This document shows, in pieces, positions 1 to 42,965 of a DNA stretch of 64,000 nt. The notes beneath the pieces are model-generated. The model had not been told where the DNA came from and searched no databases. It worked only from the letters and a program-made list of their open reading frames with translations. Positions within the stretch are counted from its first letter, which is position 1, and each line of letters starts with the position of its first letter. Origin of the DNA: a virus (Duplodnaviria > Caudoviricetes); IMG/VR virus record IMGVR_UViG_3300017922_000003, positions 1,340 through 65,339 of that record; one strand, given 5' to 3'. The position numbers were made by a program, and so were the translations under genes.

Positions 1-379
1 TATCAAAGTACGGATCCATATATTTGCTCATTGTACTTGTTATTTTATCTAGCTTGCTGAATATCTCTTCATAATAACTATCTACGACAATCCAGTAGCT
101 GTCATCAAGATACAATCCAGACTTATCATATGAAGATATTACTGATACACGTGACAGATCCCATTTTCTGCTGGTAAGAGTCAAGACCATATTCTTTTTT
201 ATGTGTTCAACATCATCGCCCATATACCACTCATAAGCAACAACTTTTGTGTGGTTTTTGGCCGAATCGACAGGATTAGGTCCGGCACTTATAATCCTGC
301 CATCCATAGTCTCATAAAAATTCAGGAACTTATCCTTCTTGTTGCAAATTGACGCTATAAGTTCCAATTTCTCAGGCAT
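1..379 (-). CDS. Hypothetical early protein, partial (runs off the window start)
   Basis: ATG at 379-377 directly after the stop of the 380-871 gene, preceded by GAGGAGAG; frame is open to base 1 (MPEKLELIASICNKK...). Confidence 0.7.
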   Translation of the reverse strand, partial: MPEKLELIASICNKKDKFLNFYETMDGRIISAGPNPVDSAKNHTKVVAYEWYMGDDVEHIKKNMVLTLTSRKWDLSRVSVISSYDKSGLYLDDSYWIVVDSYYEEIFSKLDKITSTMSKYMDPYFD

Positions 380-871
380 TTAATCACTCTCCTCTACATA
401 CATTATTCCGTTTCGATTAGCAAATCTATATTTAGACGTTATATCAACTTCTTCTTTATCCTTTAATATTTTCATCGCTTTCTTTCTAAGTTGTTTTCTC
501 ACATCTCGATGCAAGTACAGGTAGATAGTCCTGCCGTCTTCACCACCAGCGAATGGAAATACTTTGATGTACCTCAAATCTTTCTTTTTCACCAAGAGTC
601 CAAGAGCGTTGTTGAGCTTTCTAACAGTCTTTATTGAAACTCCTTCCTCTCTCCATTCAAATTTCAACGCTTTATCTCTAATGGCATATTTCAACAACTC
701 GTTCACAAATTTATCGATTGCTTTCTGACCAAAGGCGATATACTTTATCTCAACTTCTGGTGTATCGCCAACGGCCTCAACCAGTTTTACCTCTCCATCA
801 ACTTCAACGAGGCATTTAAATCTAGTCATTAGCCAGTTTAGATAGTACGGAGCAAAAGCAAGTATCTTCAC
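380..871 (-). CDS. Hypothetical basic protein (~163 aa)
   Basis: ORF track 380..880; RBS AAAGGAG lies 8 nt before GTG at 871, so that start is preferred. Confidence 0.75.
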   Translation of the reverse strand: MKILAFAPYYLNWLMTRFKCLVEVDGEVKLVEAVGDTPEVEIKYIAFGQKAIDKFVNELLKYAIRDKALKFEWREEGVSIKTVRKLNNALGLLVKKKDLRYIKVFPFAGGEDGRTIYLYLHRDVRKQLRKKAMKILKDKEEVDITSKYRFANRNGIMYVEESD

Positions 872-1158
872 ATAAACCACTCCTTTAAAAGTAGAATATC
901 CTGCATTTGCATTACATTTTCCAAAATAAAATGTCCTTCATATGAGTAACAAATACTTTACAGAGGCCAGCGATACTCACTAACCCCTACACCACACAAT
1001 ACACACCCTTATTACATAACATACTAGTCTTAAGTACTACGCATACTACATAACACTAGCTTGCATAAATACACACGTAATGCCACTTAAACCCTCATCA
1101 CAACCACTGTATAAACACTTTGGAGGATTGAAGTTTTGGCCGAAATGTGCTGATCTCT

Positions 1159-1170
1159 TCATGTGCTGGG
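1159..1170 (-). promoter_or_regulatory. Early-region motif copy (CCCAGCACATGA, variant)
   Basis: One mismatch to the CCCAGCTYATGA motif seen at 2006, 2696, 3846, 4289 and 4408; intergenic. Confidence 0.45.
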
Positions 1171-1479
1171 TGGAAAATTTACAAGAATGTGTACGAATAT
1201 ACGTAAATAAGGGGAAGAATACTATTCACTCTCGCTATTCGGCTCACAGACAGGCACACAACGCCCTGAGTATAGCCTCATAGATCCCCCAACGCACCGG
1301 ATATACAGCAAAACAGCCTAACTTCAGCACTAATATTCAGTCGTTCGACCTAATTCAAGGGCAATAGGCTCCACGGAGCCATGCGGGTTTGAGGTCTATT
1401 GACGCCAAATTTCCTACACAGTGGGGCGACAGAGTACGCCCATAAATATTTGGTCATTTGACTGAATTTATACAAGCAA

Positions 1480-1707
1480 TTATTTCCACCATTCGAACCC
1501 TCCGCCGGCGGACTCCATAATTTCGTTCTTCTCTTCCTGCGTGAGTTCTCTGACTCTATAGAAGCAACCACAACTAGAACACGTGTAGAATGCGGAGTTA
1601 CCTCTTCGCCAGATCTTCTCGCCACATCTCGAGCAGACGAAATATCTGTCGTCAGTGTCGTAGGGCCAGTACTTTATCTCCATATCCTTGTTGTCAAGAT
1701 CTTCCAT
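1480..1707 (-). CDS. Small Zn-ribbon protein (75 aa)
   Basis: CSRC...CSSC double CxxC; RBS AAAGGAGG before the ATG. Confidence 0.75.
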   Translation of the reverse strand: MEDLDNKDMEIKYWPYDTDDRYFVCSRCGEKIWRRGNSAFYTCSSCGCFYRVRELTQEEKNEIMESAGGGFEWWK

Positions 1708-2005
1708 TTCCTTCGCCTCCTTTATATTATCTGTTTAGATAACATATTCACCCAAAATCCTAAGGGTAATTGTCAGAAGACACGATTTCCTAAGGGTAAA
1801 TACCTTACCCCGGCTATAAAAACGCCTTAGAATCCATTCTCGCAAGGAAAGTTGTTAATGCGCTTAAATAGCCGTTTAGCACAATCGCCAAATCGCGCAA
1901 ACCCGCATAACACCGTTGGCGTTAATGCGAGTGGGTAAGTTCAGCGCAAATTCAGCGATTTCATGTCATTTTCGCTATTCAAGATCTGATCTTGTTTATA
2001 TTATA

Positions 2006-2017
2006 TCATAAGCTGGG
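2006..2017 (-). promoter_or_regulatory. Early-region motif copy (CCCAGCTTATGA)
   Basis: Exact 12-mer shared with 2696-2707; intergenic, just after a hairpin. Confidence 0.5.
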
Positions 2018-2019
2018 AT

Positions 2020-2045
2020 AAAACAGCCCGGGTTATTCACCCGGA
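2020..2045 (-). terminator. Possible intrinsic terminator
   Basis: Minus strand CCGGGTGAATAACCCGG hairpin then GCTGTTTT, immediately after the stop at 2047. Confidence 0.45.
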
Positions 2046-2046
2046 A

Positions 2047-2421
2047 CTACTTCTCTCTCGCAAATCTTTCTTTAGCAGAAATTGTATTCAGAGTACCGTC
2101 GTTCTCAATGAGGCGTTTAAGCCAATCGGTATTTGAGTCGTTGTCCCAAATTGTTTCCGGTACCCTATTATATTCTTCCCCGTCTTTGTAGAATATAATT
2201 TCGTAAACGTTAACGTCGTCCTGGTCGTGGCGAGTTGTTCCCTCGTCCACGAAGTACTCATCACAACCAGCGAACAGCATCGCATCCAGCTCACATTCTG
2301 CTGCGAGCTTAGCGATGTTTGTGTCTTCTGAGATCTCGCTATGACCATAGTCGCCTACAGCCAGATCCCAAGCCTTCCATGTTGTTGCTAGTCTTAACTT
2401 ATCACATTCTATTAACATCAT
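2047..2421 (-). CDS. Hypothetical acidic protein (~124 aa)
   Basis: 3' part of track ORF 2047..2577; ATG at 2421 follows GGAGGTGGAG and the stop of the upstream gene. Confidence 0.7.
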   Translation of the reverse strand: MMLIECDKLRLATTWKAWDLAVGDYGHSEISEDTNIAKLAAECELDAMLFAGCDEYFVDEGTTRHDQDDVNVYEIIFYKDGEEYNRVPETIWDNDSNTDWLKRLIENDGTLNTISAKERFAREK

Positions 2422-2422
2422 A

Positions 2423-2641
2423 TTACTCCACCTCCACAAGTTTTGTTGTGTAGCTAACGTGGAACTCGTCATACATGAGTTCTTCGCCGTTGAATGTAAC
2501 ATGCACGGCGTTTTGATTTGCAAGCACTTTTTCGTGCTCGCCAGCGATATATTCAATTGCTTCATTTTTGCTATCAAATATTTCTTCTTCGAATGTTTCT
2601 ACGTCATTGTCATCTACTATATATGTTTCCACTTTCCACAT
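2423..2641 (-). CDS. Hypothetical small acidic protein (~72 aa)
   Basis: Track ORF 2423..2674; RBS GGAGG before ATG at 2641 (MWKVETY...). Confidence 0.7.
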   Translation of the reverse strand: MWKVETYIVDDNDVETFEEEIFDSKNEAIEYIAGEHEKVLANQNAVHVTFNGEELMYDEFHVSYTTKLVEVE

Positions 2642-2695
2642 GACAACCTCCACATATTTTACCCACTCAGCCACTTGCTGAAGTGGGAGATCTTT

Positions 2696-2772
2696 TCATA
2701 AGCTGGGTGGTACATAGGTAAGTATATAAGATACTGCCGATAAGTATTTTACATATTTACTCACGCACCACC
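2696..2772 (-). promoter_or_regulatory. Long hairpin ending in the early motif CACCCAGCTTATGA
   Basis: Minus-strand stem GGTGGTGCGT...ATGTACCACC (2772-2706, with G-U pairs) runs directly into the motif at 2707-2696. Confidence 0.55.
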
Positions 2773-2895
2773 TATACTCTTACACTTTCACAACCAGCGA
2801 CTATTACCCCACCACCCCCGTACTAACACTCTTAACTGTCTTGAGACATAAGAGCTATCGTACATCCCCCAACGCCTTTTTCTCGCAGACTTTTG

Positions 2896-3064
2896 CAAGG
2901 TCGTTAACGCGGGCTTTTTCAAAGTCGTTACCCTTTGGGCAACGGCTGGAATTCAAAGTCGTTACCTACGTCTCGACCTGAGATTCAAGGTCGTTAACGC
3001 GTTGCGTCTCGACTCGAAATTCAAAGTCGTTACCTACGGCTCGACTTGTTTTTCAAGGTCGTTA
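2896..3064 (+). repeat. Iteron-like array of six CAARGTCGTTA boxes
   Basis: Boxes start at 2896, 2920, 2954, 2986, 3022 and 3054 (spacing 24/34/32/36/32); inter-box sequences are also related (e.g. CCTACG..CTCGAC). Confidence 0.85.
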
Positions 3065-3078
3065 ATGCGCTTAACTTT

Positions 3079-3121
3079 AAAAAAATCCCCCTCGCCAGCG
3101 CCGATAGGCGTGGTGAGAGGG
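3079..3121 (-). terminator. Intrinsic terminator closing the early RNAP cassette
   Basis: Minus strand CCCTCTCACCACGCC-TATC-GGCGCTGGCGAGGGGG followed by A and T7. Confidence 0.7.
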
Positions 3122-3241
3122 CAAAAGGGGGTGAAAAGTTGGTAACTCAGGGTTGCTTCGGGAACCAAGTCACGTTGAGTAACTTGATTCTCGGAGTAAC
3201 CCTCCCCAGGGACAGGTGGGTCCCCGGGGAGATGATGGATA

Positions 3242-3526
3242 TTATTTAGATTCGAAGCGAACGAGGGAAATAAATTTCAGAATATTTCCCTCTCGATTAG
3301 TTTGAGTTTTACCATCGACGAGAGGTATAGAGATTTGCCACCCCTCGACGAAAGTCTTAGCAGACCTTATCGGGAGCCAGCTCTGTTCGTACACGCAGTT
3401 AACAGTTTCGCCAGATGGCGTCTTTAGCACGCCACCACGCCTATATGGTTTAACAGTTTGTGGTGAGCGCTTATATTCCAAAATCTCTGGATCTACTTTA
3501 ACAATTCTTTTCTGATTCAAACTCAT
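3242..3526 (-). CDS. Hypothetical protein (94 aa)
   Basis: ORF with RBS AAGGAGG; overlaps the end of the upstream gene. Confidence 0.7.
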   Translation of the reverse strand: MSLNQKRIVKVDPEILEYKRSPQTVKPYRRGGVLKTPSGETVNCVYEQSWLPIRSAKTFVEGWQISIPLVDGKTQTNREGNILKFISLVRFESK

Positions 3527-3773
3527 TCAAATCATCCTCCTTTAAATTTTTACCAACCTCTGGCTCGGTCGGCTTGATTTTGCTCACAAAACGTTTCCAT
3601 TTACCAATGAGTGCTTCCTTAACGCTCCAAAGAACGAGCGCAAGAAGAGCACCTAAGAAACCAAAGAATATTTCTCGCACAACAACACCCCTTCCGGAAA
3701 AGATTTCTACACTGGCAACAACGGATGGTAGTGCCAACATAGACAAAGTGAAAATAAGGATTAGTTTTCGCAA
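3498..3773 (-). CDS. Small membrane protein (~91 aa, signal/TM helix plus a second TM helix)
   Basis: Track ORF 3498..3842; RBS AAAGGGTG before TTG at 3773; hydrophobic segments LILIFTLSMLALPSVVA and IFFGFLGALLALVLW. Confidence 0.65.
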   Translation of the reverse strand: MRKLILIFTLSMLALPSVVASVEIFSGRGVVVREIFFGFLGALLALVLWSVKEALIGKWKRFVSKIKPTEPEVGKNLKEDDLNEFESEKNC

Positions 3774-3845
3774 AGTGCACACCCTTTCAAAAAGATTTCC
3801 CTGCCGGTGGGGAACCGACAGGGATATGGGGTAAAAGTGCATAGT

Positions 3846-3883
3846 TCATGAGCTGGGTGTAGCCGGATGACCACACCCAACTC
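3846..3883 (-). promoter_or_regulatory. 15-bp stem-loop whose 3' arm is the early motif CCCAGCTCATGA
   Basis: Minus strand GAGTTGGGTGTGGTC-ATCC-GGCTACACCCAGCTC then ATGAA, 9 nt after the stop at 3893. Confidence 0.55.
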
Positions 3884-3892
3884 TGATTGAGT

Positions 3893-4225
3893 TTATGCCT
3901 CTTGTAGACGGGTAACGGCAACGATTCTGCCGTTTTCCCGTACTGCTGACTTCCCGGTGTCGGGAGCCAGTACGTCCGTTCGACTGGTTTTAGATGCAAC
4001 CAGCGACGAGGTTATATAGACAGTGCCATTTTCTGGTTCAGGGATACCCTCGATATCCCCGAACACTGTCTTCACGACGGGGATTTCAAACCCGTCAACG
4101 TTCATGCTTCCATTAGGCACCTGTTGCACTGAGGCTCGTGCGACGGTACCGGATGGTTTAATCTCTAATTTTCCCCTATCGGTCTCAATGACCAGGGGGT
4201 GGGGTGTCAAATTCACTAACTTCAT
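3893..4225 (-). CDS. Conserved phage protein of the N-terminal NLTPH family (function unknown)
   Basis: MKLVNLTPH...PSGTVAR...GIPEP.NGTVYITS.LVA...R.DVLAPDTG..AVR..GRIVAV pattern recognised from many phage hypotheticals; RBS GGAGG. Confidence 0.8.
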   Translation of the reverse strand: MKLVNLTPHPLVIETDRGKLEIKPSGTVARASVQQVPNGSMNVDGFEIPVVKTVFGDIEGIPEPENGTVYITSSLVASKTSRTDVLAPDTGKSAVRENGRIVAVTRLQEA

Positions 4226-4288
4226 AAGTAACCTCCATATATTTATCCCCCGCCGGACACATTCCGGAGGGAGAAGATTTTTAATACT

Positions 4289-4470
4289 TCATGAGCTGGG
4301 TGCCTCGGAATAGCAACACAACCAGCGACAACCAAGCACATAAGAATGTACTTGAGTCGTTGATAGTATTGCTACCGAGACACGGCTCAATCCATACCAA
4401 CTACAATTCATAAGCTAGGTGGTACATATGGTGATTCAGTTCGACTGCCGACCAAGGTAACCACTCGGCT
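4289..4470 (-). ncRNA. Candidate structured non-coding RNA or leader: two tandem long hairpins, each ending in the early motif
   Basis: Stems 4470-4413 and 4389-4292 (TGAGC/GCTCA, GTGTCTCGG/CCGAGGCAC, TAGCAA/TTGCTA and others); motif copies at 4419-4408 and 4300-4289; no credible ORF. Confidence 0.45.
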
Positions 4471-4598
4471 TTGTCCCCCAACGCGCACGTGCTACAATAG
4501 AAGGGGCAAGGGAAGGTGAGAAGGCCATGCTCATCAGACTCCCGAAGCCTTCTCTTGTGGGAGTGACGAGAGGGCCGAAGCCCCCTCGTTTCGCAGAG

Positions 4599-7211
4599 TT
4601 ATTCTCGGTAATTGACAAGGAAGTCGGCTATTTCAGCCTCCTTGTCGTATGCGTCTTTGTCCAGACACTGTACGTCCGGACAATTTTCAGTTGCTTCCTC
4701 ATAGACTCCGCGGAGGAAGTCACCACGGAGTTGAGGAAGACCGAACCACCAGAGGCAGACGATGTCATCGTCATCGTCTCCTCCGATCCATTCGGCGTCC
4801 TTGTAACCAACGACGATTACATCTTCAGGTAGATATGCCGTGGTTACTTGGACTGTTGGGATCCTCTTAAGAACAGGATCCCTTTGGAGCCTAAACGTGA
4901 GCTGAGAGAGGACTTTATTAACGGCATCTGGACCAGCCGCTATGAGGTCCTCTCTCTGTTTCTTACTCAACGTTGTATTCATTTGGAGCAGTCTATTAAT
5001 AGTTTCCGCTTTGAACGGAACGACCGCTCCTCTTTCGAAAGCGCCCGTAGCCATTCTGCCACTTACAACGGGCAGTCTGGGTGTGAACGCAATCTTGGAT
5101 CGTTTGAGTAAGAATTCCATATACTCAAACAGGCGGTCAAATGTATAAGTACCGCCTTTTTCTTCGGTAACCACGATTTCCATGGCCTTACGAAGTTCTG
5201 GACCAATCATTGTGGTACCGTCGTTCTTAATAAGGTACTTTGCCGGGAGCAATTTAATGCCTCTGACCATTAGAGGCTCGTCTACTCCCTTAAGTACCAT
5301 CTTTATCTCCTTGTCAGACAGGCGTGTATCTTCCCATCTAACCTTTTCTGCCACCAGAGTCTTCACAAACTCGAGACTTGGTGGGACGGATGAGCTCTTC
5401 TCGAAAAGCTTGTTGAAAGCCTTCCTTCTGAGCTCATTCAGCTCTTTCTTCTTCATGCGGTCAATGCTCTTGGGACTATTTTCTTGAACCATTTCATCGA
5501 CCTGCTGGAGAATCATCGTTATTGACTTGATATTGTCTATGATTCTCCTAATTTCCCACTGATGTTTCTTAGCATGGTGCCTAAGCAGTGGGTTGAGCTG
5601 GCTGAACACGTCAGGAGATGTTGCTTTTTCCTGAGCGTACAGCATTGATTTCATGCGTACCCCTGTCGATCTGTCTACCGAGAGGTCTATGGTAACCTCT
5701 GATAGGCAGATATAGCACGGTACACCATTAACCGTGCCTTCAACGAGGTGCACGTTTTTGGGATCAACGTTTCGAGGAATAGTCACTTTCTCTTCCTCAT
5801 TAAGATAAGCGTTCATCGCTATTGTTCCTGAAGCGAACAACGCTTTCTTGAGTCTTCTTGATCCCTGGGAATCGAATACGAGATCAACTTGCATCTCGCG
5901 ATCCCCAACCTTGGCCCGATAGTTTCCAGACCATATTCCAATGCCTTTGGACTTGAGTCCGCCAGCATTGAACTTGGCATTAACTGCGTGACCGTCGGCG
6001 TACAGTTCCTTAAACTTCTTGTTGACTAATACGCCATTGCCACGATTAGATACAAAACCGTTACTCAGGGCAGGAAAGCCCTTTTCACAGTTCTTTGGGA
6101 TAGCTATAATAGCCTGTGTTGAAGCCTCAGGCATTTTATATGTCCCGTTTGGCAGTTCAGAGTACATCTTAATGTACTCCTTCCTGCGCTCACCCAGATC
6201 AACCGCAAAGTGCACGGCTGACTGGATTGTTCTCTTGACATCCGCTGTGTCCATCAACGGATTCAAGAGGTACATCAGGAAACTGTAGTGATAATTCTTG
6301 TTCTTAGGTACAGCCAGTTTCCCGATGGAATTTGAACTAGAGAACGATGCAAAGTCCAGCATGTCCTCTGTCCATTCTTTGCTCCCTTTGTAGGAAGCAA
6401 ATGCTTTTTCAGGGAGTTTGTTGATTAGATCCCTGAATATTTCCTTATCGTCGTATGGGTCAACTTCAACCCATAGACGTTTGCTGATCCACTTATACTT
6501 TCCAGCAAAGCGGATCAGTTTTGATTTGAGAGTCCTGAAAAGGTCTCTCCGGTGGATCTTATAGGCATATTTAAAGAGCGTAGAACTCTTTATCAGCCTA
6601 TACGTCTTACTCTTCTGGTGATAAAAGAAAACACCAGAGAGCAGGACTTTGGAGTAGTATCTCGACAGGTGACCGAGATCATCTATGATGACCTCACCAT
6701 CGAGGTCCTCACTGGACCATCGTGATGGATCATCATAGGGACTGCTGGTACTCTCGGTTTCGAATACCAGTGTTTCTTCCATCATTTCAACCAAAGGTTG
6801 CAACCTCTCAGGGTCGCCGTATGCTTCCTTGCGAGCCCTGAAAATGTCTGTTACAACCATGTGGTTGATTTTCCCGAAGGCTTTCTTTATCTCTTTCAAT
6901 TCTGCCTTCGAGAAATCCTTTCCACACAATTGGAGGAATATACTCCATTCCTCCGCCGGTTTGTATATACCCTTGTTGGAACTGTTACCGGGTATAACCG
7001 GCATGGACTTTTTGTCCAACAGAGGCTGTATTACATTTGCCTCCATGGACAGTGCTACTTTCTCCTTCAATTGCTCAGGCACATATGGCGCTAAGTGCAT
7101 AAGCAATCGAACTGGAATCCCTATGGAGTCCTTGAAATCTTTCAAGACTCTCAACTGACTACGAAATTCATCGTAAGTCAGAGGGGTTTCCAGCTTCATG
7201 AGATCGACCAT
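4599..7211 (-). CDS. Putative single-chain two-barrel (DPBB) DNA-directed RNA polymerase catalytic subunit, 870 aa
   Basis: beta-like motifs GNGVLVNKKF, K413-FNAGGL-K420-S-K422-G and VD443LVFDSQG, then beta'-like R777-D-P-V-L and GG-D812-DDD-D816. R-to-D spacing is 35 aa, as for E. coli beta' R425-D460. RBS AAAGGGGGT. Confidence 0.7.
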   Translation of the reverse strand: MVDLMKLETPLTYDEFRSQLRVLKDFKDSIGIPVRLLMHLAPYVPEQLKEKVALSMEANVIQPLLDKKSMPVIPGNSSNKGIYKPAEEWSIFLQLCGKDFSKAELKEIKKAFGKINHMVVTDIFRARKEAYGDPERLQPLVEMMEETLVFETESTSSPYDDPSRWSSEDLDGEVIIDDLGHLSRYYSKVLLSGVFFYHQKSKTYRLIKSSTLFKYAYKIHRRDLFRTLKSKLIRFAGKYKWISKRLWVEVDPYDDKEIFRDLINKLPEKAFASYKGSKEWTEDMLDFASFSSSNSIGKLAVPKNKNYHYSFLMYLLNPLMDTADVKRTIQSAVHFAVDLGERRKEYIKMYSELPNGTYKMPEASTQAIIAIPKNCEKGFPALSNGFVSNRGNGVLVNKKFKELYADGHAVNAKFNAGGLKSKGIGIWSGNYRAKVGDREMQVDLVFDSQGSRRLKKALFASGTIAMNAYLNEEEKVTIPRNVDPKNVHLVEGTVNGVPCYICLSEVTIDLSVDRSTGVRMKSMLYAQEKATSPDVFSQLNPLLRHHAKKHQWEIRRIIDNIKSITMILQQVDEMVQENSPKSIDRMKKKELNELRRKAFNKLFEKSSSVPPSLEFVKTLVAEKVRWEDTRLSDKEIKMVLKGVDEPLMVRGIKLLPAKYLIKNDGTTMIGPELRKAMEIVVTEEKGGTYTFDRLFEYMEFLLKRSKIAFTPRLPVVSGRMATGAFERGAVVPFKAETINRLLQMNTTLSKKQREDLIAAGPDAVNKVLSQLTFRLQRDPVLKRIPTVQVTTAYLPEDVIVVGYKDAEWIGGDDDDDIVCLWWFGLPQLRGDFLRGVYEEATENCPDVQCLDKDAYDKEAEIADFLVNYRE

Positions 7212-7234
7212 TTTGTTACCCCCTTTTCAAAATT

Positions 7235-7261
7235 GACAGTTTAACGTCATGTCTGGGACGT
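7235..7261 (-). promoter_or_regulatory. H-type pseudoknot in the 5' leader of the RNAP gene
   Basis: Minus strand ACGTC-CCAGACAT-GACGT-TAAAC-TGTC: stem 1 ACGTC/GACGT, loop GACA pairs with TGTC; ends 8 nt upstream of the RBS. Confidence 0.45.
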
Positions 7262-7390
7262 GAGCTACCCGCTCATACCTGCCATCCGGCATGCATCAAC
7301 GAGCAGTCGTTAGAGCTTAGTCGTTAACACATTCAACTAGTCCCCTACCGCACCTACTCTCACAGCAAAGGGGCTAATTGAATTTTTGCG

Positions 7391-7459
7391 TTAACGGTGT
7401 TGCATACCGCTACGGTTCTTAACCAACGATGTTTCATACCACAATGGATTCTTATCCAA
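7391..7459 (-). CDS. Possible 22-aa leader peptide (MDKNPLWYETSLVKNRSGMQHR)
   Basis: Perfect AAAGGAGG 8 nt before TTG at 7459; the RBS is folded into a GGAG-GAAA-CTCC hairpin. Confidence 0.3.
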   Translation of the reverse strand: MDKNPLWYETSLVKNRSGMQHR

Positions 7460-7529
7460 TGGAGTTTCCTCCTTTCCAGAGCGATTAACCCGCTCATATC
7501 TGCCTGAGGCAGGTATCAGAGAGTTAATC

Positions 7530-7566
7530 AAAATAAAGCAAAAGGCGGGGGCCGAAGCCCCTCGCC
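7530..7566 (-). terminator. Intrinsic terminator after the 174-aa gene
   Basis: Minus strand GGCGAGGGGC-TTCG-GCCCCCGCC then TTTTGCTTTATTTT. Confidence 0.7.
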
Positions 7567-7575
7567 AAAAAAATA

Positions 7576-8100
7576 TCACTTAAGGTTCTTGCGAACCTCC
7601 GACAGAAGCTTTCCAGCCTCCGTCTGTCCCAGTTTCACCTGGGACTTTTGGGGCTTTTTGCCCCTTGAGGACTTTTCGGTCCTCTTTTTCCTAGTTTTCT
7701 TTTTCGAGGACTTCTCAGTCCTCTGTTCCTTTTTGACTGCCTTTACGACAGTCATTGAGGAGAATCTTTCGACCTCCTCTTTGTTTAGAGAGCTGAGCAG
7801 CCCCCTCGTCTGGACGAAGGCTACCCTCCTCTCACGGAGCCACTTATCTTTCAAGCGCTCCGTTCTTTTTAGGCTAGCCACTACTGTGGCGTAGCCTTCC
7901 TTACTATTGGGGTCCGGATAAAGTTCATCCATCCCCCTTTTAATCGTCAGCAAGGTGCTCTTTGCACCCGCTAACTTTGAGAGGACCATCTCGGCCCTCT
8001 CGTATTTTTCATTCAGGGTTTCAACCCTTTTCAGGGCTTCCGCCCTCCTTTTCTTTTCGAGACCTTTCTCAAGGTCTCTTTTCAATTTCAACAAATCCAT
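7576..8100 (-). CDS. Highly basic coiled-coil protein (174 aa), probably nucleic-acid binding
   Basis: K/R-rich with a repeated RTEKSS unit; RBS GAAAGGGGG. Confidence 0.75.
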   Translation of the reverse strand: MDLLKLKRDLEKGLEKKRRAEALKRVETLNEKYERAEMVLSKLAGAKSTLLTIKRGMDELYPDPNSKEGYATVVASLKRTERLKDKWLRERRVAFVQTRGLLSSLNKEEVERFSSMTVVKAVKKEQRTEKSSKKKTRKKRTEKSSRGKKPQKSQVKLGQTEAGKLLSEVRKNLK

Positions 8101-10501: not shown

Positions 10502-11413
10502 ATGCCTTCTGCTGCATATTTTCTCAACAATGACGTAACAGCACAGTCTCAAAGTGATGCTCTTGCTGCTACCGGTGGAGCATTAAAAGCCGGGCTGGGA
10601 CTTGGTGGAGCGTGGTTTGTTGAAGAAATGCTTGCTGAACGCATGGAGCTGGCTCCGTTCCAAAAAACCGGGAGAATTACCAGTGCTATTAGCGAAAGGA
10701 TATTTGGTTTAAAGGGAGTAGGATTGCATCAACTTTCAGATGTTAACTATCCACTTGCATTTAAAGAAAAAGCCAATGTATTGTTGTGGCGTAACAGGTA
10801 CGCCCGTAAAGCTGCTAAGTACGTAAATGCTTCGATCGAAGGGAAAGCTGCCGGTGAGTTCTTGAGTTCTGCGGTTAAGGCTGGAAATAAGACTATTTCA
10901 CTCAAAACACCCACAACCCTATTTGGTTTTAAAACTGAAAATCAGGGGTTGCTCTTCAATATGAATTTAACTGGCGGAGGAAAGAAATTTTCTAAAGGAT
11001 TTATAGGTCAGGCGAGAGGCAAGATAGCCAGTCTTATTAAGAGTAAAAATTATGCAGCTGCAAAGAAACTCGGTGCCTATGCCACTTCTGTACTTGGTCA
11101 GTCTATAGGTTCTTACATAATTGCCTTTGATGTCGCCAGCACGGTGGCTATGGGAATCAATCTGGCACGTGGAGCATTTAACTATTTTGAAGGTTTGGGA
11201 CAGGCTGCCAAAGCTTATGCGCGCGAGTCCATAGGATCCGAAAACTCTGTTGCTGTTCCGGACTTTGTTGATTCTCAGGCCAATCAGGCTATGAGACAGG
11301 CGAATGTGCAGGAACTTATGCAGTCCCGACAGCAGACGGTTATGCAAAACACGAACGAAGCTTCCATGCTGAAAAACAACCCATACAAATTTTACAGATA
11401 TATTGGAGGTTGA
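10502..11413 (+). CDS. Gly/Ala-rich amphipathic protein; possible internal/ejection protein
   Basis: 303-aa ORF in the operon with GxxxG-type hydrophobic stretches. Confidence 0.6.
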   Translation: MPSAAYFLNNDVTAQSQSDALAATGGALKAGLGLGGAWFVEEMLAERMELAPFQKTGRITSAISERIFGLKGVGLHQLSDVNYPLAFKEKANVLLWRNRYARKAAKYVNASIEGKAAGEFLSSAVKAGNKTISLKTPTTLFGFKTENQGLLFNMNLTGGGKKFSKGFIGQARGKIASLIKSKNYAAAKKLGAYATSVLGQSIGSYIIAFDVASTVAMGINLARGAFNYFEGLGQAAKAYARESIGSENSVAVPDFVDSQANQAMRQANVQELMQSRQQTVMQNTNEASMLKNNPYKFYRYIGG

Positions 11414-11417
11414 TTTC

Positions 11418-13127
11418 TTGTCAACCAAAACACTTAATATGCAACAGCAATACCAGAAGATGGCTCAGGAGTATCTTGGTGTGGATTATGAGCTTGAGCA
11501 AATGTGTGTTGACTGTGTTCTCAGAAGACTTGAGAACGATATAAACGAGCACCGAATACCTTGTAAACCTCTTGAAAAAGGTACGATAGATGATCAGATA
11601 CCTCAAACTAAAGATGATTATTTACTTAAATTAGCGGAAGATCCCGCATTCTTTTCAAAAGAGATGTTTGAAATGGAATTGCGAGGATTTCAAAAAGAGA
11701 TATTGTACTGCACGTCCCGTAGGAAAGTGCTCAGGATTTGTCGTAGAGCCGGTAAGACTGAAGCGATGGCTATAGCTGCTATCAAGCACGCCATTACACA
11801 TAAAGATCAGGAAATACTGGTCGCTGCTCCCATGGAATCACAGGTTAAAAATCTGTTTGAAAAGATGAACAAGCATCTTATCAATTCAGAAGCGTTGCGT
11901 AATTCCGTGATTAAACAATCCACAACCAAAACACGGCTCTATCGTTCAAAACCTTTTGAACTTGCGTTCAACAACGGGTCTAAGATAGAAGGTTTTACTA
12001 CTGGGTCTCAGGGTGCCAAGAATATTCGTGGTCAGGACGGTTCTATGATTGTGCTGGACGAGGTTGACTATATGAACAGACCGGATATAGAAGCCATACT
12101 CGCTATCTTAGCAACCAGTCCAAAAACCACGCTTATAGCAAGTTCCACACCCTCGGGCAGACGAGATTACTTCTATCAGTGGTGTCATTCCTCTTCATTT
12201 AAAGAAATACATTATTCCTATCAGGATATAGAAATATACGATCCCAAACAGGACAGAGAGTTTAAAGAACAGTACGATAAAGAGGCGTACGAGCGTGAAA
12301 TCCTTGCCATGTTTACCCTTATGGAATCGGGCGTTTACAGGCCTGACAAGATCCAGCAGAGTATAGAAAATTACAGTTTTGATGACCCATACAACGTACC
12401 TGAAGGGCTATACACCATGGGGGTTGACTGGAATGAAACAGCTGCTGGTGTACAGATTGTAGTGGTGCGTTACGAGCCTGATAAAGGCAAGTTTAGAACG
12501 TGCAATGTGTTGGAAATACCTCCATCTCAATTCACTCAGATAGAGGCTGTGGAGAAGATTATCGACCTCAACACCATGTATCAGCCGCGCAAGATAATGC
12601 TGGACGCCGGTTATGGTAATACCCAGTTCCAGATGCTTCAAAAACATGCTGAACAGCACCCGGAATCAAAACTGGAAGAAAGGCTGGAGATGATACCGTT
12701 CCAGTCCAAGGTACATCTTGTAGATCCCGCGACAGGCAACAAGGTTAGCAGAAGCATAAAGACCCACATGGTTTCTATAAGTGCGCGTTATGTGGAAAAC
12801 AATCGTATTATCATGCCAGCTTCAGAAGATTATCCTGGCAAGCTGGTAGGTATTATGCGTAATTACGCCATTGAAAAGATAGGCAGCAACGGTGAGCCTC
12901 AATATTCCAAAGGAAAGGTTCACATATTGGAAGCATGGATACTCGCCATGTACGGCATGTGGAAGATAAGCGAAGATGGCGGTGGATTCAATATGAGAAA
13001 TCCAATCATTGTTAAAACAGAACGAGACAAGAACAGCAAACAAAGCGTTAGACGTAGTTTCAGACGCTCTCGTGGTGCTCTGGACTTATCGCGTGGAGCG
13101 CTTGGCGGTAGGAGGCGTTGGACTTGA
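11418..13127 (+). CDS. terL: Terminase large subunit
   Basis: Walker A RRAGKT, Walker B IVLDE, coupling motif SSTP, RNase H-like GVDW and LDAGYG; RBS GGAGG before TTG at 11418 (track start 11403). Confidence 0.95.
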   Translation: MSTKTLNMQQQYQKMAQEYLGVDYELEQMCVDCVLRRLENDINEHRIPCKPLEKGTIDDQIPQTKDDYLLKLAEDPAFFSKEMFEMELRGFQKEILYCTSRRKVLRICRRAGKTEAMAIAAIKHAITHKDQEILVAAPMESQVKNLFEKMNKHLINSEALRNSVIKQSTTKTRLYRSKPFELAFNNGSKIEGFTTGSQGAKNIRGQDGSMIVLDEVDYMNRPDIEAILAILATSPKTTLIASSTPSGRRDYFYQWCHSSSFKEIHYSYQDIEIYDPKQDREFKEQYDKEAYEREILAMFTLMESGVYRPDKIQQSIENYSFDDPYNVPEGLYTMGVDWNETAAGVQIVVVRYEPDKGKFRTCNVLEIPPSQFTQIEAVEKIIDLNTMYQPRKIMLDAGYGNTQFQMLQKHAEQHPESKLEERLEMIPFQSKVHLVDPATGNKVSRSIKTHMVSISARYVENNRIIMPASEDYPGKLVGIMRNYAIEKIGSNGEPQYSKGKVHILEAWILAMYGMWKISEDGGGFNMRNPIIVKTERDKNSKQSVRRSFRRSRGALDLSRGALGGRRRWT

Positions 13128-14542
13128 AATTATCTGATCTAAAAAAGAATAAATATATAGGCGAATATGTTGGTGAAAGCGATTCGAGCAAAGAAGAAAA
13201 GGCAAAAAGGCCCGTTGAGGAAGAGGAATTAGACGAACGACAACTCGCACTGCGTAAAGCTATTAGAAAGTTAGAGCTGGCAGAAAGTGCTATGAACAGC
13301 CTTTCTGACACCACCACGCAGGAAGCGAACGATTCCTACGTGGAGATCACACCAACCAGAGATGACGTGATAGAAGCGTTACAAAAGTTAAGGGAAGCCG
13401 GAGGAAAGGTTTCGCCACCATCTACAGAACAGCCCACGGGCGGAAATCTCGGATCCGGTAATCAGCCAACATCTCCTTCTGGCGAAGAACCCACAGAACA
13501 TGATATACCAATCAAAGAATACGATCCCGGCGACCCCAGTAAAATCACATTCGACGATTACATGTACGCTGCGGATATAGTCAAATATTCCATACCACCT
13601 GCAGAGGCATTTGAAAATTCTGAAGACCTTATGCCTAAATTTACGGGTGGACATGTCAGGTACGGCGACAATGTATTTGTGGATGAAAACGGTGATGTCG
13701 TTACGCTGGAAGAAGGCGATCCAGAACCGGTGGAACCGTGTATCCCATCTGGTTCATGGTTCAAACGCTTCCTTCTTAAGTTAGTGTTAAACGAAGGACT
13801 GGAAGTGGACTTTATATGGTTGTACGGAAAGATCTCTTTATGTCCCATGACAAAGATTTGGAACACCATATGGAGTAAATTGAAAGGCATTAAATTGAGC
13901 CTTCCGTGGCCCGTTGGTGATATAAACATCGGTGAAAAACTGTTCGGCTGGATTCCCTACATCTATCTTCCTGAAGAAGCTGCTTACTGGCTGGCCAAGA
14001 AAAAGCAGGAGACAATGTGCAGACCTGTGTACCTTTTAAAGAGTTACAGCTGCCATAAAATTTCCAGAAACGCATTCCTCGAAGCGCATCCAAATGACAG
14101 ACTGGCACAAGAGGTTGTCAGTGAAATAGATTCACCGGTAGCAAAGAAATTCAGAGACTCTGATGTCTTGGAAGAGTACAGCAAGTACAACGAAAATACA
14201 GCTGATGCCATACTGGCATTTGTCAATATGAGCAAGCAATTGTTCACTGGAGTAACTCCACCCACGTTAGATCAGTACGAAAATATACAGTATCAGATAG
14301 ATGTGCAAGTACCTAAAGACCTGTTCATTCTCTGCGGTTCAAATACGCTCAGCAGTGCCCTCAATGCTTTTGAAAATGGTAACAGAGATAAAGGAAACGG
14401 TATTTTAAACAAAAGAATTATGAGGCTGTTCAACATGCGAAAGAGCAGGGATTTGGAAACTACCATTGCAGATATTTCCGAATACAGAATGAATACAGGA
14501 TTCTACTATGTTGAAGACGGAATTTTCCCGGGTGATAGATAA
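13124..14542 (+). CDS. Hypothetical virion-associated protein (~472 aa)
   Basis: Long ORF overlapping the terL stop; RBS AGGAGG before TTG at 13124. Confidence 0.75.
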   Translation: MKLSDLKKNKYIGEYVGESDSSKEEKAKRPVEEEELDERQLALRKAIRKLELAESAMNSLSDTTTQEANDSYVEITPTRDDVIEALQKLREAGGKVSPPSTEQPTGGNLGSGNQPTSPSGEEPTEHDIPIKEYDPGDPSKITFDDYMYAADIVKYSIPPAEAFENSEDLMPKFTGGHVRYGDNVFVDENGDVVTLEEGDPEPVEPCIPSGSWFKRFLLKLVLNEGLEVDFIWLYGKISLCPMTKIWNTIWSKLKGIKLSLPWPVGDINIGEKLFGWIPYIYLPEEAAYWLAKKKQETMCRPVYLLKSYSCHKISRNAFLEAHPNDRLAQEVVSEIDSPVAKKFRDSDVLEEYSKYNENTADAILAFVNMSKQLFTGVTPPTLDQYENIQYQIDVQVPKDLFILCGSNTLSSALNAFENGNRDKGNGILNKRIMRLFNMRKSRDLETTIADISEYRMNTGFYYVEDGIFPGDR

Positions 14543-16377
14543 TGAAAAGAAGAAAGAATGGCGTTAATGTAACGTACAACAGAAATAAAAAGAACAGTGA
14601 TTACAGGGTACATCCTTTGCAATCAGGCGGTGATCCCGAAGTAAGAGTTGCCGCAATGACTGTTATGAATTACTTCAAGGAAAATCAGGATAAATTGCAG
14701 GTTCCAAAAGGCGATGAGCAACAGGTAAAGGACATGGTTTACCACACCGATGAATATGAGAATGGGGAAAAGCAAAATATGGACGCGGCAATGAATATGT
14801 TCAAATCCGAACAGGAATCAGAAGGAAATAGCTTTTTGCCCATAGCCGCGAATGTAAAAGGACTTGCAGGACAGTTCAAAAACCGTACAGAGAAACTTGT
14901 AGAAACGTTCAAAGGTTTTGATCCAGAAGCGGACGCACCCATTGTTATGATGCTCGAGTACAGCGAAGCTGCGTATGATTACGTAGTCGATGTGCTTAGA
15001 TTAATGCAGAATTCTGAAGACATGGAAGCAATGGGATGTTGCCTACTAGTTTACCTTCGCATGATGGGCATACGTAAAAACTCAATTGATGTGGATATAA
15101 ACACAGCGGAAGATCTTGAGAAAATCAAGGAAGCGCTTAAGAAATGGAAGAAGGTTCTCCAAACTGCATCCTCATTTTTTGATCTTCTAAACAGTCTTGC
15201 AAACTCACTTATGAAGATAATACGTTCTGCCATGATGATGGCAACATATGCATTGTTGGATGCAGTGCGGGAAATATACAACGACCTTACCGAAGGGGTG
15301 CGTGAATGGATAACAGACGCCATGGGGAATGTCGGAATCAGCATGTGTTCCGATGACGTGGTAAACATACTGAGCACATCCGACTTCGAGAGCACCGATG
15401 AGGTAATGAGCTATATCAGTATGATACTCAGTTCAAATCCTGATATAAAGGGAGCAGACGCTCAGGAAAAGGTATCAGCCTTGTTTGATTTTCTAAAAAG
15501 TACCAATGACAATGTCTCAGATATTGAAGGAGAACTTAACAGGCGTATACAATCAATTCTGGGGGATAAAAAACTCACCCAGCAGGATATCTGTGGCACC
15601 TGTCTGCCCTTTTACCGTATGACCAAAGAGATAGTTGTGAAGTCTTTTGATAACCTTGACGCAACCGTGTTGAATTTGATGGACAAATGCCTTGCCTCTA
15701 TTCCATCGTTACCTTCACTACCCAGAGAGTCTGTGTTGCTAAGGTACTCAAAACTACTTATAAAGATAATCGATAAGATATTGGAACTAGATCTGGAAGG
15801 TTTTCACGTAACGATGAACCAATGCACAAAACGTTTCGGCGGTGTGAGGGATATATCTGAAGCACCCGCCGGTGATCTCGAGAGTCCCGCTACCGGCGAA
15901 ACAGACGAAAGGCAAACTGGTAATAAACCTATCAAGGACAATGATTACGAAATTGGTAATTTGTTTGGTGTCGATATAGATAGCCAGACACCGAAAGAAG
16001 AAACAACAGGCAATATTACAGAAAGATTGCCGCTACCCCCGGAAATTGAAGCTGAACTTGGTGTTCCCACAAACATTTCTGAGATAGTTGAACGCAGTAT
16101 TACGGACTTGGGAGGCATGTTGCCGGAACTTGAAGAACTGTATAAAACCCTTGGTTCATCAGATTTAGAGGGTTTGATTAACGCATTATTACAGTCCACC
16201 GATGGTGACCTGGGCTCTCTCTTAGAATTACTTGGTCTCGATCCTAATGCCTCTACACAGGAAATACTTATGGCACTATACGATTTCCTAAAGCGTGTTG
16301 GGGACAGGCATGTAGGAGACAAATCAAGAATATTACGGCTAAGTGACAGGATAGATGAAATCATAAACACTTTTTGA
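14542..16377 (+). CDS. Hypothetical acidic helical protein (611 aa)
   Basis: Long ORF coupled by TAATG, between terL and portal. Confidence 0.75.
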   Translation: MKRRKNGVNVTYNRNKKNSDYRVHPLQSGGDPEVRVAAMTVMNYFKENQDKLQVPKGDEQQVKDMVYHTDEYENGEKQNMDAAMNMFKSEQESEGNSFLPIAANVKGLAGQFKNRTEKLVETFKGFDPEADAPIVMMLEYSEAAYDYVVDVLRLMQNSEDMEAMGCCLLVYLRMMGIRKNSIDVDINTAEDLEKIKEALKKWKKVLQTASSFFDLLNSLANSLMKIIRSAMMMATYALLDAVREIYNDLTEGVREWITDAMGNVGISMCSDDVVNILSTSDFESTDEVMSYISMILSSNPDIKGADAQEKVSALFDFLKSTNDNVSDIEGELNRRIQSILGDKKLTQQDICGTCLPFYRMTKEIVVKSFDNLDATVLNLMDKCLASIPSLPSLPRESVLLRYSKLLIKIIDKILELDLEGFHVTMNQCTKRFGGVRDISEAPAGDLESPATGETDERQTGNKPIKDNDYEIGNLFGVDIDSQTPKEETTGNITERLPLPPEIEAELGVPTNISEIVERSITDLGGMLPELEELYKTLGSSDLEGLINALLQSTDGDLGSLLELLGLDPNASTQEILMALYDFLKRVGDRHVGDKSRILRLSDRIDEIINTF

Positions 16378-16406
16378 AGCGCCCTACGTAAACTAAGGAC
16401 CCATGC

Positions 16407-16417
16407 TGTTATATCTA
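16407..16417 (+). promoter_or_regulatory. Late promoter motif TGTTATATCTA (head operon)
   Basis: 18 nt upstream of the portal ATG at 16436. Confidence 0.75.
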
Positions 16418-16435
16418 CCTTCGGGTGGTGAACGC

Positions 16436-17911
16436 ATGGGTCTTTTCGATTTTTTTAAGAGGAATAAAAATAACACCAATGCACAAAAACACAATATTTA
16501 CGATGACGCTGAATTAGAATCTGCCAAGAGGGTAGTTAAGAATGAAAGCGAAAATTGGCAGAAGATGTACGACTACGATACCACCAGCCTTGAGGTTTTT
16601 AAGGCCATCTCTTCAGATTCCACTCTCAGGCAAATTGTTGCCAGATATATAGAGGTTACTCTCAGGCAAGGATTTACCATTAAAAGCGACGACGAGGAGA
16701 TAAACAAAAAGCTTCACAAGAGATTGCTGGAAATAGAGATCGCTTCAGGAAGCAAACTGTACATGATCTTACGCAAGATGATGCATGATCTGATTGCATA
16801 TGGCAACGCTTTTCTTACACTGAAACGCAATGCTGCCAATTCTTCAGGCAAACCATACGTGTTTATTGACGGTTCGAAGCTGGAACCGGTTTCGGCTGTT
16901 TTTCACGTTGACCCTTACAACATGATGGTTTCCAGAAACAAACATGGCAGGATCGTTGGATATCGTCAGGATATCAACATGAACGACTGGAAATATGACT
17001 ACACGTGGTATGCAGATCCAGACAGGGAAATCATTCCCCTTGGTACGGGTGGCAAGAGGTCATCTGGCGTGGTTACGTTTGATCCCAATGATGTAGTGCA
17101 CGTTAAGTATGATGAATCCAATCTTGCTTTTGGCAGGAGTTTCTTGCTGGAAGCCATAGAAGATCTTCTTATCTTAAGACGTATTGAATCCGTTATTACC
17201 CGCATGATCGACGAAGGCGAATTTTACGTAAAGATCTACACGGTTGGAACAAAGGAATCCCCCGGTACGAAAAAACAGACCATGGCTGCCAAAGAGATTA
17301 TAGAGGACAGCGTACCGGAAGAGTTCTTGCTCATACCCGGCAACCACGATATTGACTTCAAAGAAATGTCTTCGCTGAAGGATCTCAAGGAATATGCCGA
17401 ATATTTCAAGAGACGCTACTACGGTGCTCTTGGTGTTTCGCCGGTTTCCATGGGTGAACCCGGAGCAGCCAATAGAGCCACAGCGGACTCTTCTAACGAA
17501 GGTATGTATGACAAAGCAAGAGATTTTCAGATGATTCTTTCCAGCGTTTTGGAATCCACACTGATGACTCATATCGTTATGGATTTGGGTTACTCGCCGG
17601 AAGATCTGGACGAGCATTCCATGCCAAAGGTAGTGTTCCCCGATCCCGACGTAGATAAGGCTATCAAGCTGGAAAACGAGGCAACACATCTATACGAACA
17701 CTTTGCCATAACACGTGAAGAGATGAGACGAAAGTTAGGTATGGAACCAATCGCCGATGATGATAAGGGTACTTACCTGCATCAGGTAAAGATACCGATT
17801 ATAGAGGCCGAGGCTAGAGCCAAAGCCAAAGCTGCCATGGAAAGCGGTTCTGCTGATACAGATAACCGTGTGCAGCCACAGAATCAACATTCTAATGGAG
17901 GTAATGAATGA
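16436..17911 (+). CDS. Portal protein
   Basis: DLIAYGNAFL, DVVHVK...FGRS, LGVSPVSMG...NRAT and ITREEMRRKLGMEP motifs of HK97-like portals; position before the protease; RBS GGTGGTG. Confidence 0.9.
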   Translation: MGLFDFFKRNKNNTNAQKHNIYDDAELESAKRVVKNESENWQKMYDYDTTSLEVFKAISSDSTLRQIVARYIEVTLRQGFTIKSDDEEINKKLHKRLLEIEIASGSKLYMILRKMMHDLIAYGNAFLTLKRNAANSSGKPYVFIDGSKLEPVSAVFHVDPYNMMVSRNKHGRIVGYRQDINMNDWKYDYTWYADPDREIIPLGTGGKRSSGVVTFDPNDVVHVKYDESNLAFGRSFLLEAIEDLLILRRIESVITRMIDEGEFYVKIYTVGTKESPGTKKQTMAAKEIIEDSVPEEFLLIPGNHDIDFKEMSSLKDLKEYAEYFKRRYYGALGVSPVSMGEPGAANRATADSSNEGMYDKARDFQMILSSVLESTLMTHIVMDLGYSPEDLDEHSMPKVVFPDPDVDKAIKLENEATHLYEHFAITREEMRRKLGMEPIADDDKGTYLHQVKIPIIEAEARAKAKAAMESGSADTDNRVQPQNQHSNGGNE

Positions 17912-21887: not shown

Positions 21888-21962
21888 GCCAGTGTAGCTC
21901 AACGGAAGAGCAGCTGATTTGTAATCAGCAGGTTGGGGGTTCAAATCCCTTCGCTGGCCCCA
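21888..21962 (+). tRNA. trnT: tRNA-Thr (anticodon UGU) with encoded CCA
   Basis: Acceptor GCCAGTG/CGCTGGC, D arm GCTC/GAGC, anticodon arm GCTGA-TTTGTAA-TCAGC, T loop TTCAAAT, CCA at 21960-21962. Confidence 0.95.
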
Positions 21963-37179: not shown

Positions 37180-37189
37180 GGTGAGATAG

Positions 37190-42934: not shown

Positions 42935-42942
42935 ACCGCCAT

Positions 42943-42960
42943 TGTTATTTCTACACTGAG
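42943..42960 (+). promoter_or_regulatory. Late promoter motif TGTTATTTCTA-N4-GAG (baseplate operon)
   Basis: Exact motif in the 31-bp gap between two giant genes. Confidence 0.8.
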
Positions 42961-42965
42961 AGGCG

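Follow-up and report, generated by a model that had tools for sequence, protein, structure and literature searches.

A predicted single-chain two-barrel polymerase from a rare phage family that ends at its catalytic barrel, with a candidate hammerhead ribozyme behind the stop codon

All two-barrel RNA polymerases (RNAPs) in one structural comparison keep a bridge helix, which is located after the catalytic double-psi beta-barrel (DPBB) (PMC10770324). In the available part of PMC7598289, a split site following the beta′-like catalytic barrel (DPBB-A) is described as common to the virion and non-virion RNAPs of jumbo phages (vRNAP, nvRNAP) and to cyanobacterial RNAP. The same part of that source indicates that the chain of split beta′ enzymes (cyanobacterial and plastid RpoC1/gamma, N-beta′ of phiKZ and AR9) ends just after the barrel with the DxDxD loop. 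P23-45 gp64 and its counterpart P74 gp62, P23-45 gp96, crAss-like phi14:2 gp66, QDE-1, and YonO carry a beta-like barrel (DPBB-B), a connector, and DPBB-A in one chain. Such single-subunit RNAPs extend past DPBB-A by a helix/loop, the bridge helix, part of the trigger loop, and usually a C-terminal clamp element (PMC10770324). Here we compare with these systems a gene of a tailed phage (Duplodnaviria; Caudoviricetes). The analysed window of 64,000 nt corresponds to bases 1340–65339 of one 65,339-bp virus record (IMG/VR IMGVR_UViG_3300017922_000003), and the gene is an 870-amino-acid (aa) open reading frame (ORF) at 4599–7211 on the minus strand, whose product, P0001, is assigned from its translation, fold matches, and family as a single-chain two-barrel polymerase. 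An initial reading of the letters, below called the sequence-only reading, had described it as a putative RNAP that stops 54 residues after the active-site loop, with the bridge helix and trigger loop missing or supplied in trans. Its two premises, that both elements lie C-terminal to the catalytic loop in two-barrel RNAPs and that beta′ is naturally split in some lineages, agree with PMC10770324 and with the shared split site after DPBB-A in the available part of PMC7598289, respectively.

The five aspartates D812–D816 of P0001 are encoded at 4764–4778, and the TAA stop (4599–4601) comes exactly 54 residues after D816. The next non-overlapping minus-strand ORF of at least 50 aa, a 110-aa ORF at 3893–4225, starts at 4225, so 4226–4598 (373 nt) holds no continuation ORF. 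The 385-nt stretch 4226–4610 folded with −151.3 kcal/mol compared with −119.7 ± 6.5 kcal/mol for shuffled sequences (z −4.85), and 0 of 100 shuffles were as good. The sequence-only reading was thus correct in its coordinates and in its description of structured non-coding DNA behind the stop.

Relatives of P0001 were sought in libraries representing ~15 billion predicted proteins. An exhaustive search of 1.84 billion cluster representatives gave four other members, and word-indexed searches of 5.8 billion clusters gave three further ones. The family therefore consists of 8 proteins, one of which is an N-terminally cut fragment, and these form at least five groups with less than 40% identity between them. 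No relative was present in IMG/VR, GTDB genomes, or GenBank phages, and a metagenome scan with a narrower alignment (A3) returned 3 short contigs. The family is extremely rare. As it has only 8 proteins in ~15 billion and none in isolated phages, it would be missed by annotation pipelines.

Longer C-termini in homologs had been proposed as a check, and all 8 members were found to end 5–54 residues after the last Asp (5, 7, 7, 8, 9, 17, 54, and 54 residues). A length of 5–9 residues is what one closing beta-strand needs, and the P0001 model has a strand at 818–821. P0002, which is 70% identical to P0001, stops at the same residue, with 42 of the 54 tail residues identical, while the six more distant members, all from other samples, stop earlier. 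The figure of 54 residues consequently holds for P0001 and P0002 and is not a family trait, as most members end 5–17 residues after the last Asp. The tail of residues 828–870 (4602–4730, minus strand) is confined to the P0001/P0002 subclade. It was modelled with a predicted local distance difference test score (pLDDT) of 40–54, and the 54 residues after D816 contain 12 Asp+Glu against 5 Lys+Arg (isoelectric point, pI, 4.2). Because it is acidic, poorly modelled, and missing from 6 of the 8 members, the tail is best seen as an appendage of this subclade rather than a bridge helix; the suggestion that these residues might model as a bridge helix/trigger loop equivalent did not hold.

A different explanation would be that the gene is an artefact or in decay, either through an assembly error or as the 5′ remnant of a longer or intron-interrupted gene. 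The structured spacer of 373 nt right behind the stop looks unusual for a phage operon and would fit such an explanation. The shared stop of P0002 and the earlier stops of the other six members speak against it, and no downstream frame resembles any RNAP part. In locus L001 the gene that follows the stop of an 830-aa relative, with an overlap of 47 nt, is a different one and encodes an RNase H1-type protein. Contig X5, a related oil-field contig, spans the stop of P0001 and showed a 2-nt deletion just behind it and three substitutions in the last dozen codons. The contig of one run was identical over 4100–5000; this run is possibly the source and is not independent support for the stop. We consider an artefact or decayed gene highly improbable. 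The stop of P0001 is genuine and not an assembly error, and ending in this region is common to the whole 8-member family.

An AlphaFold2 model of P0001 was built from the 8 family sequences and reached a mean pLDDT of 62.5. The pLDDT was 70–90 over residues 364–824 and poor at 1–24, 169–363, and 825–870. Four parts precede the tail. The N-terminal region (residues 1–355; 6147–7211) is helical to about residue 165 and then mixed alpha/beta, and it received no fold assignment. Residues 356–516 (5664–6146) form DPBB-B, a beta/Rpb2-like barrel recognised by VIA structure matches. The secondary structure of the model gives a clamp-like helical connector for residues 517–709 (5085–5663), and residues 710–827 (4731–5084) form DPBB-A, the beta′-like catalytic barrel, identified by VIA and Foldseek. 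All four are encoded on the minus strand. On this model P0001 is a single-chain two-barrel polymerase with the order N-terminal region, DPBB-B, connector, and DPBB-A.

DPBB-B matched Rpb2 (8s52_B) in VIA with a Z score of 10.6 and a root-mean-square deviation (rmsd) of 3.1 over 142 aligned residues, and in a search independent of Foldseek it matched RPB2 of African swine fever virus (ASFV; 8q3b_B) with a Z of 10.5. DPBB-A matched residues 345–477 of beta′ (7ye2_D, 9n9q_G, 6psq_J) with VIA Z scores of 9.0–9.1, rmsd values of 2.9–3.1, and 112–113 aligned residues at 16–18% identity. The matches listed by Foldseek against the PDB were all largest-subunit (beta′-type) RNAP chains, with a best E of 8.7e-5. 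Among these matches was the split Synechocystis RpoC1 (8gzg_D), and plastid RpoC1 (9epc_D) was among the VIA matches. Two-barrel RNAPs took all of ranks 1–18 when 48,161 chains were searched independently of Foldseek. The matches in BFVD were viral RNAP-like proteins.

Alignments that spanned both barrels were obtained with single-subunit enzymes. Residues 333–825 matched QDE-1 with a VIA Z of 9.3; in the search of 48,161 chains, QDE-1, P74 gp62, and P23-45 gp96 had Z scores of 8.9, 8.4, and 8.4, respectively. P0001 therefore resembles the single-subunit two-barrel RNAPs in its one-chain order, in these Z scores of 8.4–9.3, and in being phage-encoded like several of them. It differs from them in that its family has none of the extension past DPBB-A. 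P74 gp62 has about 250 residues after the barrels, whereas what is long in the P0001 family is the N-terminal region, at 355 aa. The last 40–60 residues of the connector align with the beta′/A′ part that precedes the barrel (residues 650–827 with 228–464 of 8x6f_D, and 669–828 with 232–474 of 2pmz_A).

The chain from residues 306–328 onward is colinear with the C-terminal half of beta in VIA comparisons with phiKZ, AR9, and Thermus beta. The N-terminal region folded alone (pLDDT 52.7) gave no RNAP-like match; its best Z was 5.0, with generic helical bundles, and the Foldseek E was 0.56. Because of the colinearity from about residue 306, the model favours a reduced form of the beta N-terminus over a relocated bridge helix for this region. 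A circular permutation that moved the bridge-helix/trigger-loop module to the N-terminus is held to be less likely for the same reason.

Ten residues are invariant in all 8 members: K413, K422, G423, R777, P779, P785, D812, D813, D814, and D816. K413 and K422-G423 (5946–5975) supply a basic pair in DPBB-B. K413 and K422 are candidate equivalents of Rpb2 K979 and K987, as judged from the aligned range (Rpb2 792–1100) and not at residue level. R777-D-P779 (4875–4883) is the R-x-P motif of DPBB-A, and R777/P779 lie 35 residues before D812 in seven members and 33 in one. D812–D816 (DDDDD) make up the DxDxD metal-binding loop. All three motifs are read on the minus strand. The best hhalign segment against E. 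coli beta′ paired residues 762–821 with 410–469 (E 0.15, non-significant alone). It placed R777/P779 on R425/P427 and D812/D814/D816 on D460/D462/D464 of beta′, and this register agrees with the structural one. Against E. coli beta, hhalign gave only a spurious segment.

As stated in the available part of PMC2919709, an Arg and a Pro upstream of the Asp loop (Rpb1 R446/P448) are invariant in two-barrel RNAPs, and Ruprich-Robert and Thuriaux count eight residues invariant in all of these enzymes. The invariants of the P0001 family fit six or seven of those eight, as they are given in that part. For the fourth Asp (Rpb2 D837, QDE-1 D709), no invariant acidic residue was found in residues 356–412 of the family alignment. 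The G-N/D-G turn at 391–393, with Asp in two and Asn in six members, is a candidate for this place by position only. The designation as a putative RNAP is hence borne out by the fold and the invariant residues, and not by sequence similarity. P0001 against Pfam gave only a sub-threshold MIF4G match, PHROGs gave nothing usable, and phmmer against the PDB gave nothing meaningful. The family profile had 0 matches among PDB sequences at E ≤ 10. The ESM Atlas held no usable feature match for P0001, and its structure rows are meaningless since the Atlas's own model has a pLDDT of 0.34.

In the P0001 family nothing follows DPBB-A where the bridge helix and trigger loop sit in other two-barrel RNAPs, and the absence of this module is genuine and family-wide. 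The chain break falls after DPBB-A, as in the split-beta′ multisubunit RNAPs. Compared with those enzymes, P0001 has the beta-like barrel fused upstream in the same chain, its family mostly ends 5–17 residues after the last Asp, its sequence similarity is below detection, and no C-beta′ partner was found. The literature searched described no two-barrel polymerase chain in which the barrels are fused and DPBB-A forms the end; the 23 family alignments published with PMC10770324 (Supplementary Data 3) may include one. P0001 is a new architectural variation on a known kind of enzyme, in a very rare phage family. The absence behind the catalytic barrel stands, and to the earlier alternative "missing or in trans" a possible third option is added, in which helices of the N-terminal region or the connector of the same chain take over the role.

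The reading we rank first, with a probability of about 0.42, is a separately encoded beta′-C-like partner. It takes this place because the same split point in beta′ is known, the barrels match multisubunit enzymes best, and more than half of the genome is probably unseen. P0001 would then be the catalytic chain of a phage-encoded two-barrel (cellular-type) RNAP with its beta-like and beta′-like barrels fused, and the last strand of the catalytic barrel would be the intended end of the chain. The enzyme would make RNA from phage DNA, and the bridge-helix/trigger-loop module would come from the partner, with the break placed as between RpoC1 and RpoC2 and in jumbo-phage RNAPs. Such a partner could be among the record's ORFs without a family or in the roughly half of the genome outside the contig.

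Several results weigh against this reading. The RNAP identification rests on an AlphaFold model with a mean pLDDT of 62.5 made from 8 sequences only, since all sequence-level links to RNAPs (null Pfam, PHROGs, and PDB searches; hhalign E 0.15) are non-significant. No beta′-C-like gene was found: PF04998 (RNA_pol_Rpb1_5) was null in the 65-kb record, a low-power search, as PF00623 (Rpb1_2) also misses the barrel that the fold comparison finds. The family hidden Markov model (HMM) detected no paralogue in any frame, and together with a scan for R-x-P...DxDxD over 459 frames of at least 50 aa it returned only P0001 as a two-barrel enzyme; the scan had one chance motif match, at 56538–58436. Neither neighbour of the relatives' genes, a 232-aa protein or the RNase H1-type protein, resembles a bridge-helix subunit. 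PolD, moreover, is a two-barrel polymerase that functions without a bridge helix or trigger loop (PMC10770324).

The sequence-only reading had named the neighbouring basic helical protein as a candidate partner. This is P0009, a lysine-rich protein of 174 aa (7576–8100, minus strand; pI 10.4) without a family match. It has no homologue beside the relatives' genes and is unrelated to their 232-aa gene; the proposal gained no support. A complex prediction of P0001 residues 340–870 with P0009 scored 0.00; it was run with no controls and counts neither way. The 232-aa protein is conserved directly upstream of the polymerase gene in all three relatives' loci (L001–L003), with 58–88% identity among them. 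It showed no Pfam family, no homologue in the phage record, and no likeness to P0009.

That no partner gene is conserved beside the polymerase gene across the family fits a self-sufficient minimal enzyme, in which the chain of 800–880 aa is the whole polymerase. Such an enzyme would have no bridge helix or trigger loop or would use non-homologous helices of the same chain, for which residues 533–578 of the connector and 13–65 of the N-terminal region are candidates in the model. The chain end is kept in 8 of 8 members across their divergent groups, and there is room for substitutes, with 355 residues before the first barrel compared with 88 in P74 gp62 plus the helical connector of 190 residues. 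P23-45 gp96 illustrates how much these enzymes can be reduced, and PolD has no element in common with RNAPs apart from the barrels (PMC10770324). The available part of PMC5467207 describes YonO as fast and processive without detectable trigger-loop homology. On the other side stand the bridge helix kept in every compared enzyme (PMC10770324), the N-terminal part that alone matches nothing RNAP-like (best Z 5.0), and the colinearity from residue 306 with the C-terminal half of beta, by which the N-terminus is likelier a reduced beta N-terminus. We regard a self-sufficient enzyme as a possible but tentative second choice. Its extreme form, a complete transcriptase of about 800 aa that entirely lacks both the bridge helix and the trigger loop, is unlikely. 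If true, it would be the first cellular-type RNAP lacking these elements, would define what the minimal catalytic core of the superfamily really is, and would offer a living model for the ancestor shared with PolD before the last universal common ancestor (LUCA).

PolD also bears on whether P0001 is a transcriptase at all. Archaeal PolD DP2 has a two-barrel core without a bridge helix or trigger loop, likewise P0001, and it aligned over both barrels at rank 20 (Z 7.2, 216 residues), followed by generic DPBB domains with Z ≤ 7. P0001 could accordingly be read as a two-barrel primase or a PolD-like replicative enzyme for phage DNA replication. In L001, the only locus that reaches that far, the next gene (4317–4820) carries an RNase H1 hybrid-binding domain (PF01693, E 3.5e-15). 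Iteron-like repeats at 2891–3069 lie 1.5 kb off in the same arm, and no DNA polymerase, primase, or helicase was recognised among the family scans of the 65-kb record. RNAP chains, however, outranked PolD in every fold comparison. PolD, a DNA polymerase, also has Zn modules and a DP1 partner, neither of which was seen for P0001, though no test aimed at them was made. With a record completeness of about 45%, the absent replication genes mean little. According to the available part of PMC7598289, the jumbo-phage core set likewise contains RNase H genes together with RNAP genes. A replication role is therefore doubtful and ranks third.

The UUCG hairpin noted behind the stop in the sequence-only reading is present. 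It is not a plain terminator-like hairpin and corresponds to stem III of a hammerhead motif. A candidate type II hammerhead ribozyme was located at 4518–4595 on the minus strand by Rfam and a core pattern. A permissive Rfam scan of 4150–4700 matched Hammerhead_II (RF02276) at 4528–4595 (minus strand) with 19.9 bits and an E of 0.18 for the 551-nt search; this score is below the gathering score of 37, and a scan of the whole window at E ≤ 1 did not list the match. The core is complete in type II order; its pattern has a single occurrence in the 64-kb window, and none of 100 shuffles contained it.

The elements were assigned as follows, all on the minus strand. Stem II has 3 bp (U4595-G-C4593 with G4530-C-A4528), and the GAAA core occupies 4592–4589. 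Stem III (4589–4566) has 10 bp and a UUCG loop, being the GC-rich hairpin 4568–4587 closed by A4589-U4566 and C4588-G4567. The GUC cleavage site lies at 4567–4565, with the cut predicted between 4565 and 4564. The 6 bp of stem I join 4564–4559 to 4543–4538, and the CUGAUGAG core follows at 4537–4530. The 3′ strand of a pseudoknot (4526–4518), directly 3′ of stem II, has the potential for 8–9 bp of pairing with loop I. In the available part of Perreault et al. 2011 (PMC3088659), the type II consensus has a pseudoknot between loop I and the 3′ tail, a stem II of down to two pairs, and cases flanking phage genes. The candidate is like type II hammerheads in its open stem II, closed stems I and III, CUGAUGA/GAAA core, GUC site, and phage intergenic context. 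It differs from RF02276 in the unusually long stem III (10 bp), the loop I of 15 nt, and the single copy in the window.

Rfam found no ribozyme at E ≤ 1 in the relatives' loci L001–L003, so the candidate hammerhead is specific to the P0001 lineage. No RNA run was listed as containing the ribozyme stretch. In the oil-field relatives (runs X3–X5), 4100–4594 differed by 0–1.3%, whereas the polymerase coding part 4692–4996 differed by 11–16%. X5 showed no listed difference at 4524–4594, and X4 none at 4504–4594 with a single difference at 4503. A hand reading of the 30-letter loose end of X4 showed that a TAA is kept, one codon later and three bases ahead of the ribozyme. The jump in divergence points either to recombination with a boundary at or near the stop and ribozyme or to a strongly constrained RNA. 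As the start of the downstream gene (4100–4225) is equally identical, a recombination mosaic explains the identity of the ribozyme equally well. In the loose end of X3, also read by hand, two substitutions in the 5′ strand of stem I would still allow G-U pairing with the unchanged 3′ strand, which may lend the ribozyme weak support.

A 60-aa ORF starting with TTG (4436–4618) overlaps the ribozyme in a frame other than that of P0001 and shows no conservation as an extension. A frameshift into this ORF to extend P0001 was rejected because the ORF passes through the ribozyme and the relatives have nothing equivalent. Between the ribozyme and the 110-aa ORF lies a structured leader (4226–4517, minus strand) with a long imperfect hairpin at about 4290–4400; in the oil-field relatives it showed 3 differences and 2 gaps in 229 nt. 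Judged from its sequence, the candidate type II hammerhead probably cuts the polymerase transcript 34 nt behind the stop. The cut would leave the UUCG-capped 10-bp hairpin as the 3′ end of the mRNA and would separate the downstream cistrons, whose RNA would start with a 5′-hydroxyl. The polymerase gene would thus be a further case in which self-cleavage probably generates the 3′ end of a phage mRNA.

At its other end the polymerase gene is preceded by a 364-nt spacer, in which a 17-mer at 7267–7283 occurs again at 7488–7504, 221 nt apart. A GC-rich UUCG hairpin with a U-tract, resembling an intrinsic terminator, follows directly after the P0009 gene at 7545–7566. From the repeat in the spacer and this hairpin, the polymerase gene seems to have its own control region. 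The minus strand of 1–8100 is a divergent arm of small genes of no known families that contains the 870-aa ORF, and it is taken to be the early gene arm.

Further repeats were observed in this arm. The iteron-like array at 2891–3069 lies in a 660-nt gene-free stretch and consists of a 15-mer in four copies at 32–36-nt spacing, interleaved with a related 21-mer in three copies, with a 52-nt duplication. It may be a replication origin or an array for binding a regulator. A motif of about 16–22 nt (CCACC-C/T-AGCT-Y-ATGAA on the minus strand) was present five times, at 1158–1179, 2695–2716, 3841–3876, 4288–4309, and 4407–4428, often near a second repeated 15-mer (538, 1096, 2259, 2786, 4314). These repeated motifs are candidate promoters or processing sites.

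The plus strand carries the structural block of a tailed phage from 8852 onward. Family matches gave the terminase (11403–13127), portal (16403–17911), major head protein (20576–21823), tail sheath (24241–25860), and baseplate J (50873–52012) genes. Three consecutive giant ORFs of 1902, 1914, and 2279 aa (31471–49805) lie between the tail and baseplate genes. The one of 2279 aa has an endolysin-like part (2016–2103) and a weak endonuclease-like part (1594–1702), and the other two have no family matches; PDB sequence searches with all three gave no match, and none of them showed a two-barrel motif. Two large ORFs of 474 and 611 aa without a family match (13118–16377) stand between the terminase and portal genes, an unusual location for such ORFs. 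The major head protein gene is separated from the structural gene after it by a tRNA gene (21888–21959; Rfam 67.7 bits). All of these are on the plus strand.

Most ORFs of the record had no family match. The 65,339-bp record has no terminal repeat, its class is linear, and CheckV gave a completeness of 45%; probably more than half of the phage genome is outside the contig. From the linear class, this completeness, and the lack of a recognised DNA polymerase, primase, or helicase, the contig probably misses many of the non-structural genes.

The bridge helix is treated as universal in cellular-type RNAPs, and the P0001 family appears as a natural two-barrel fusion that stops at the barrel boundary. 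It would represent either a new split of the enzyme, with a beta plus beta′-N fusion and a beta′-C subunit, or a working core more reduced than any seen so far. Both outcomes would bear on the minimal needs of templated RNA synthesis by this fold and on the relation between RNAPs and PolD.

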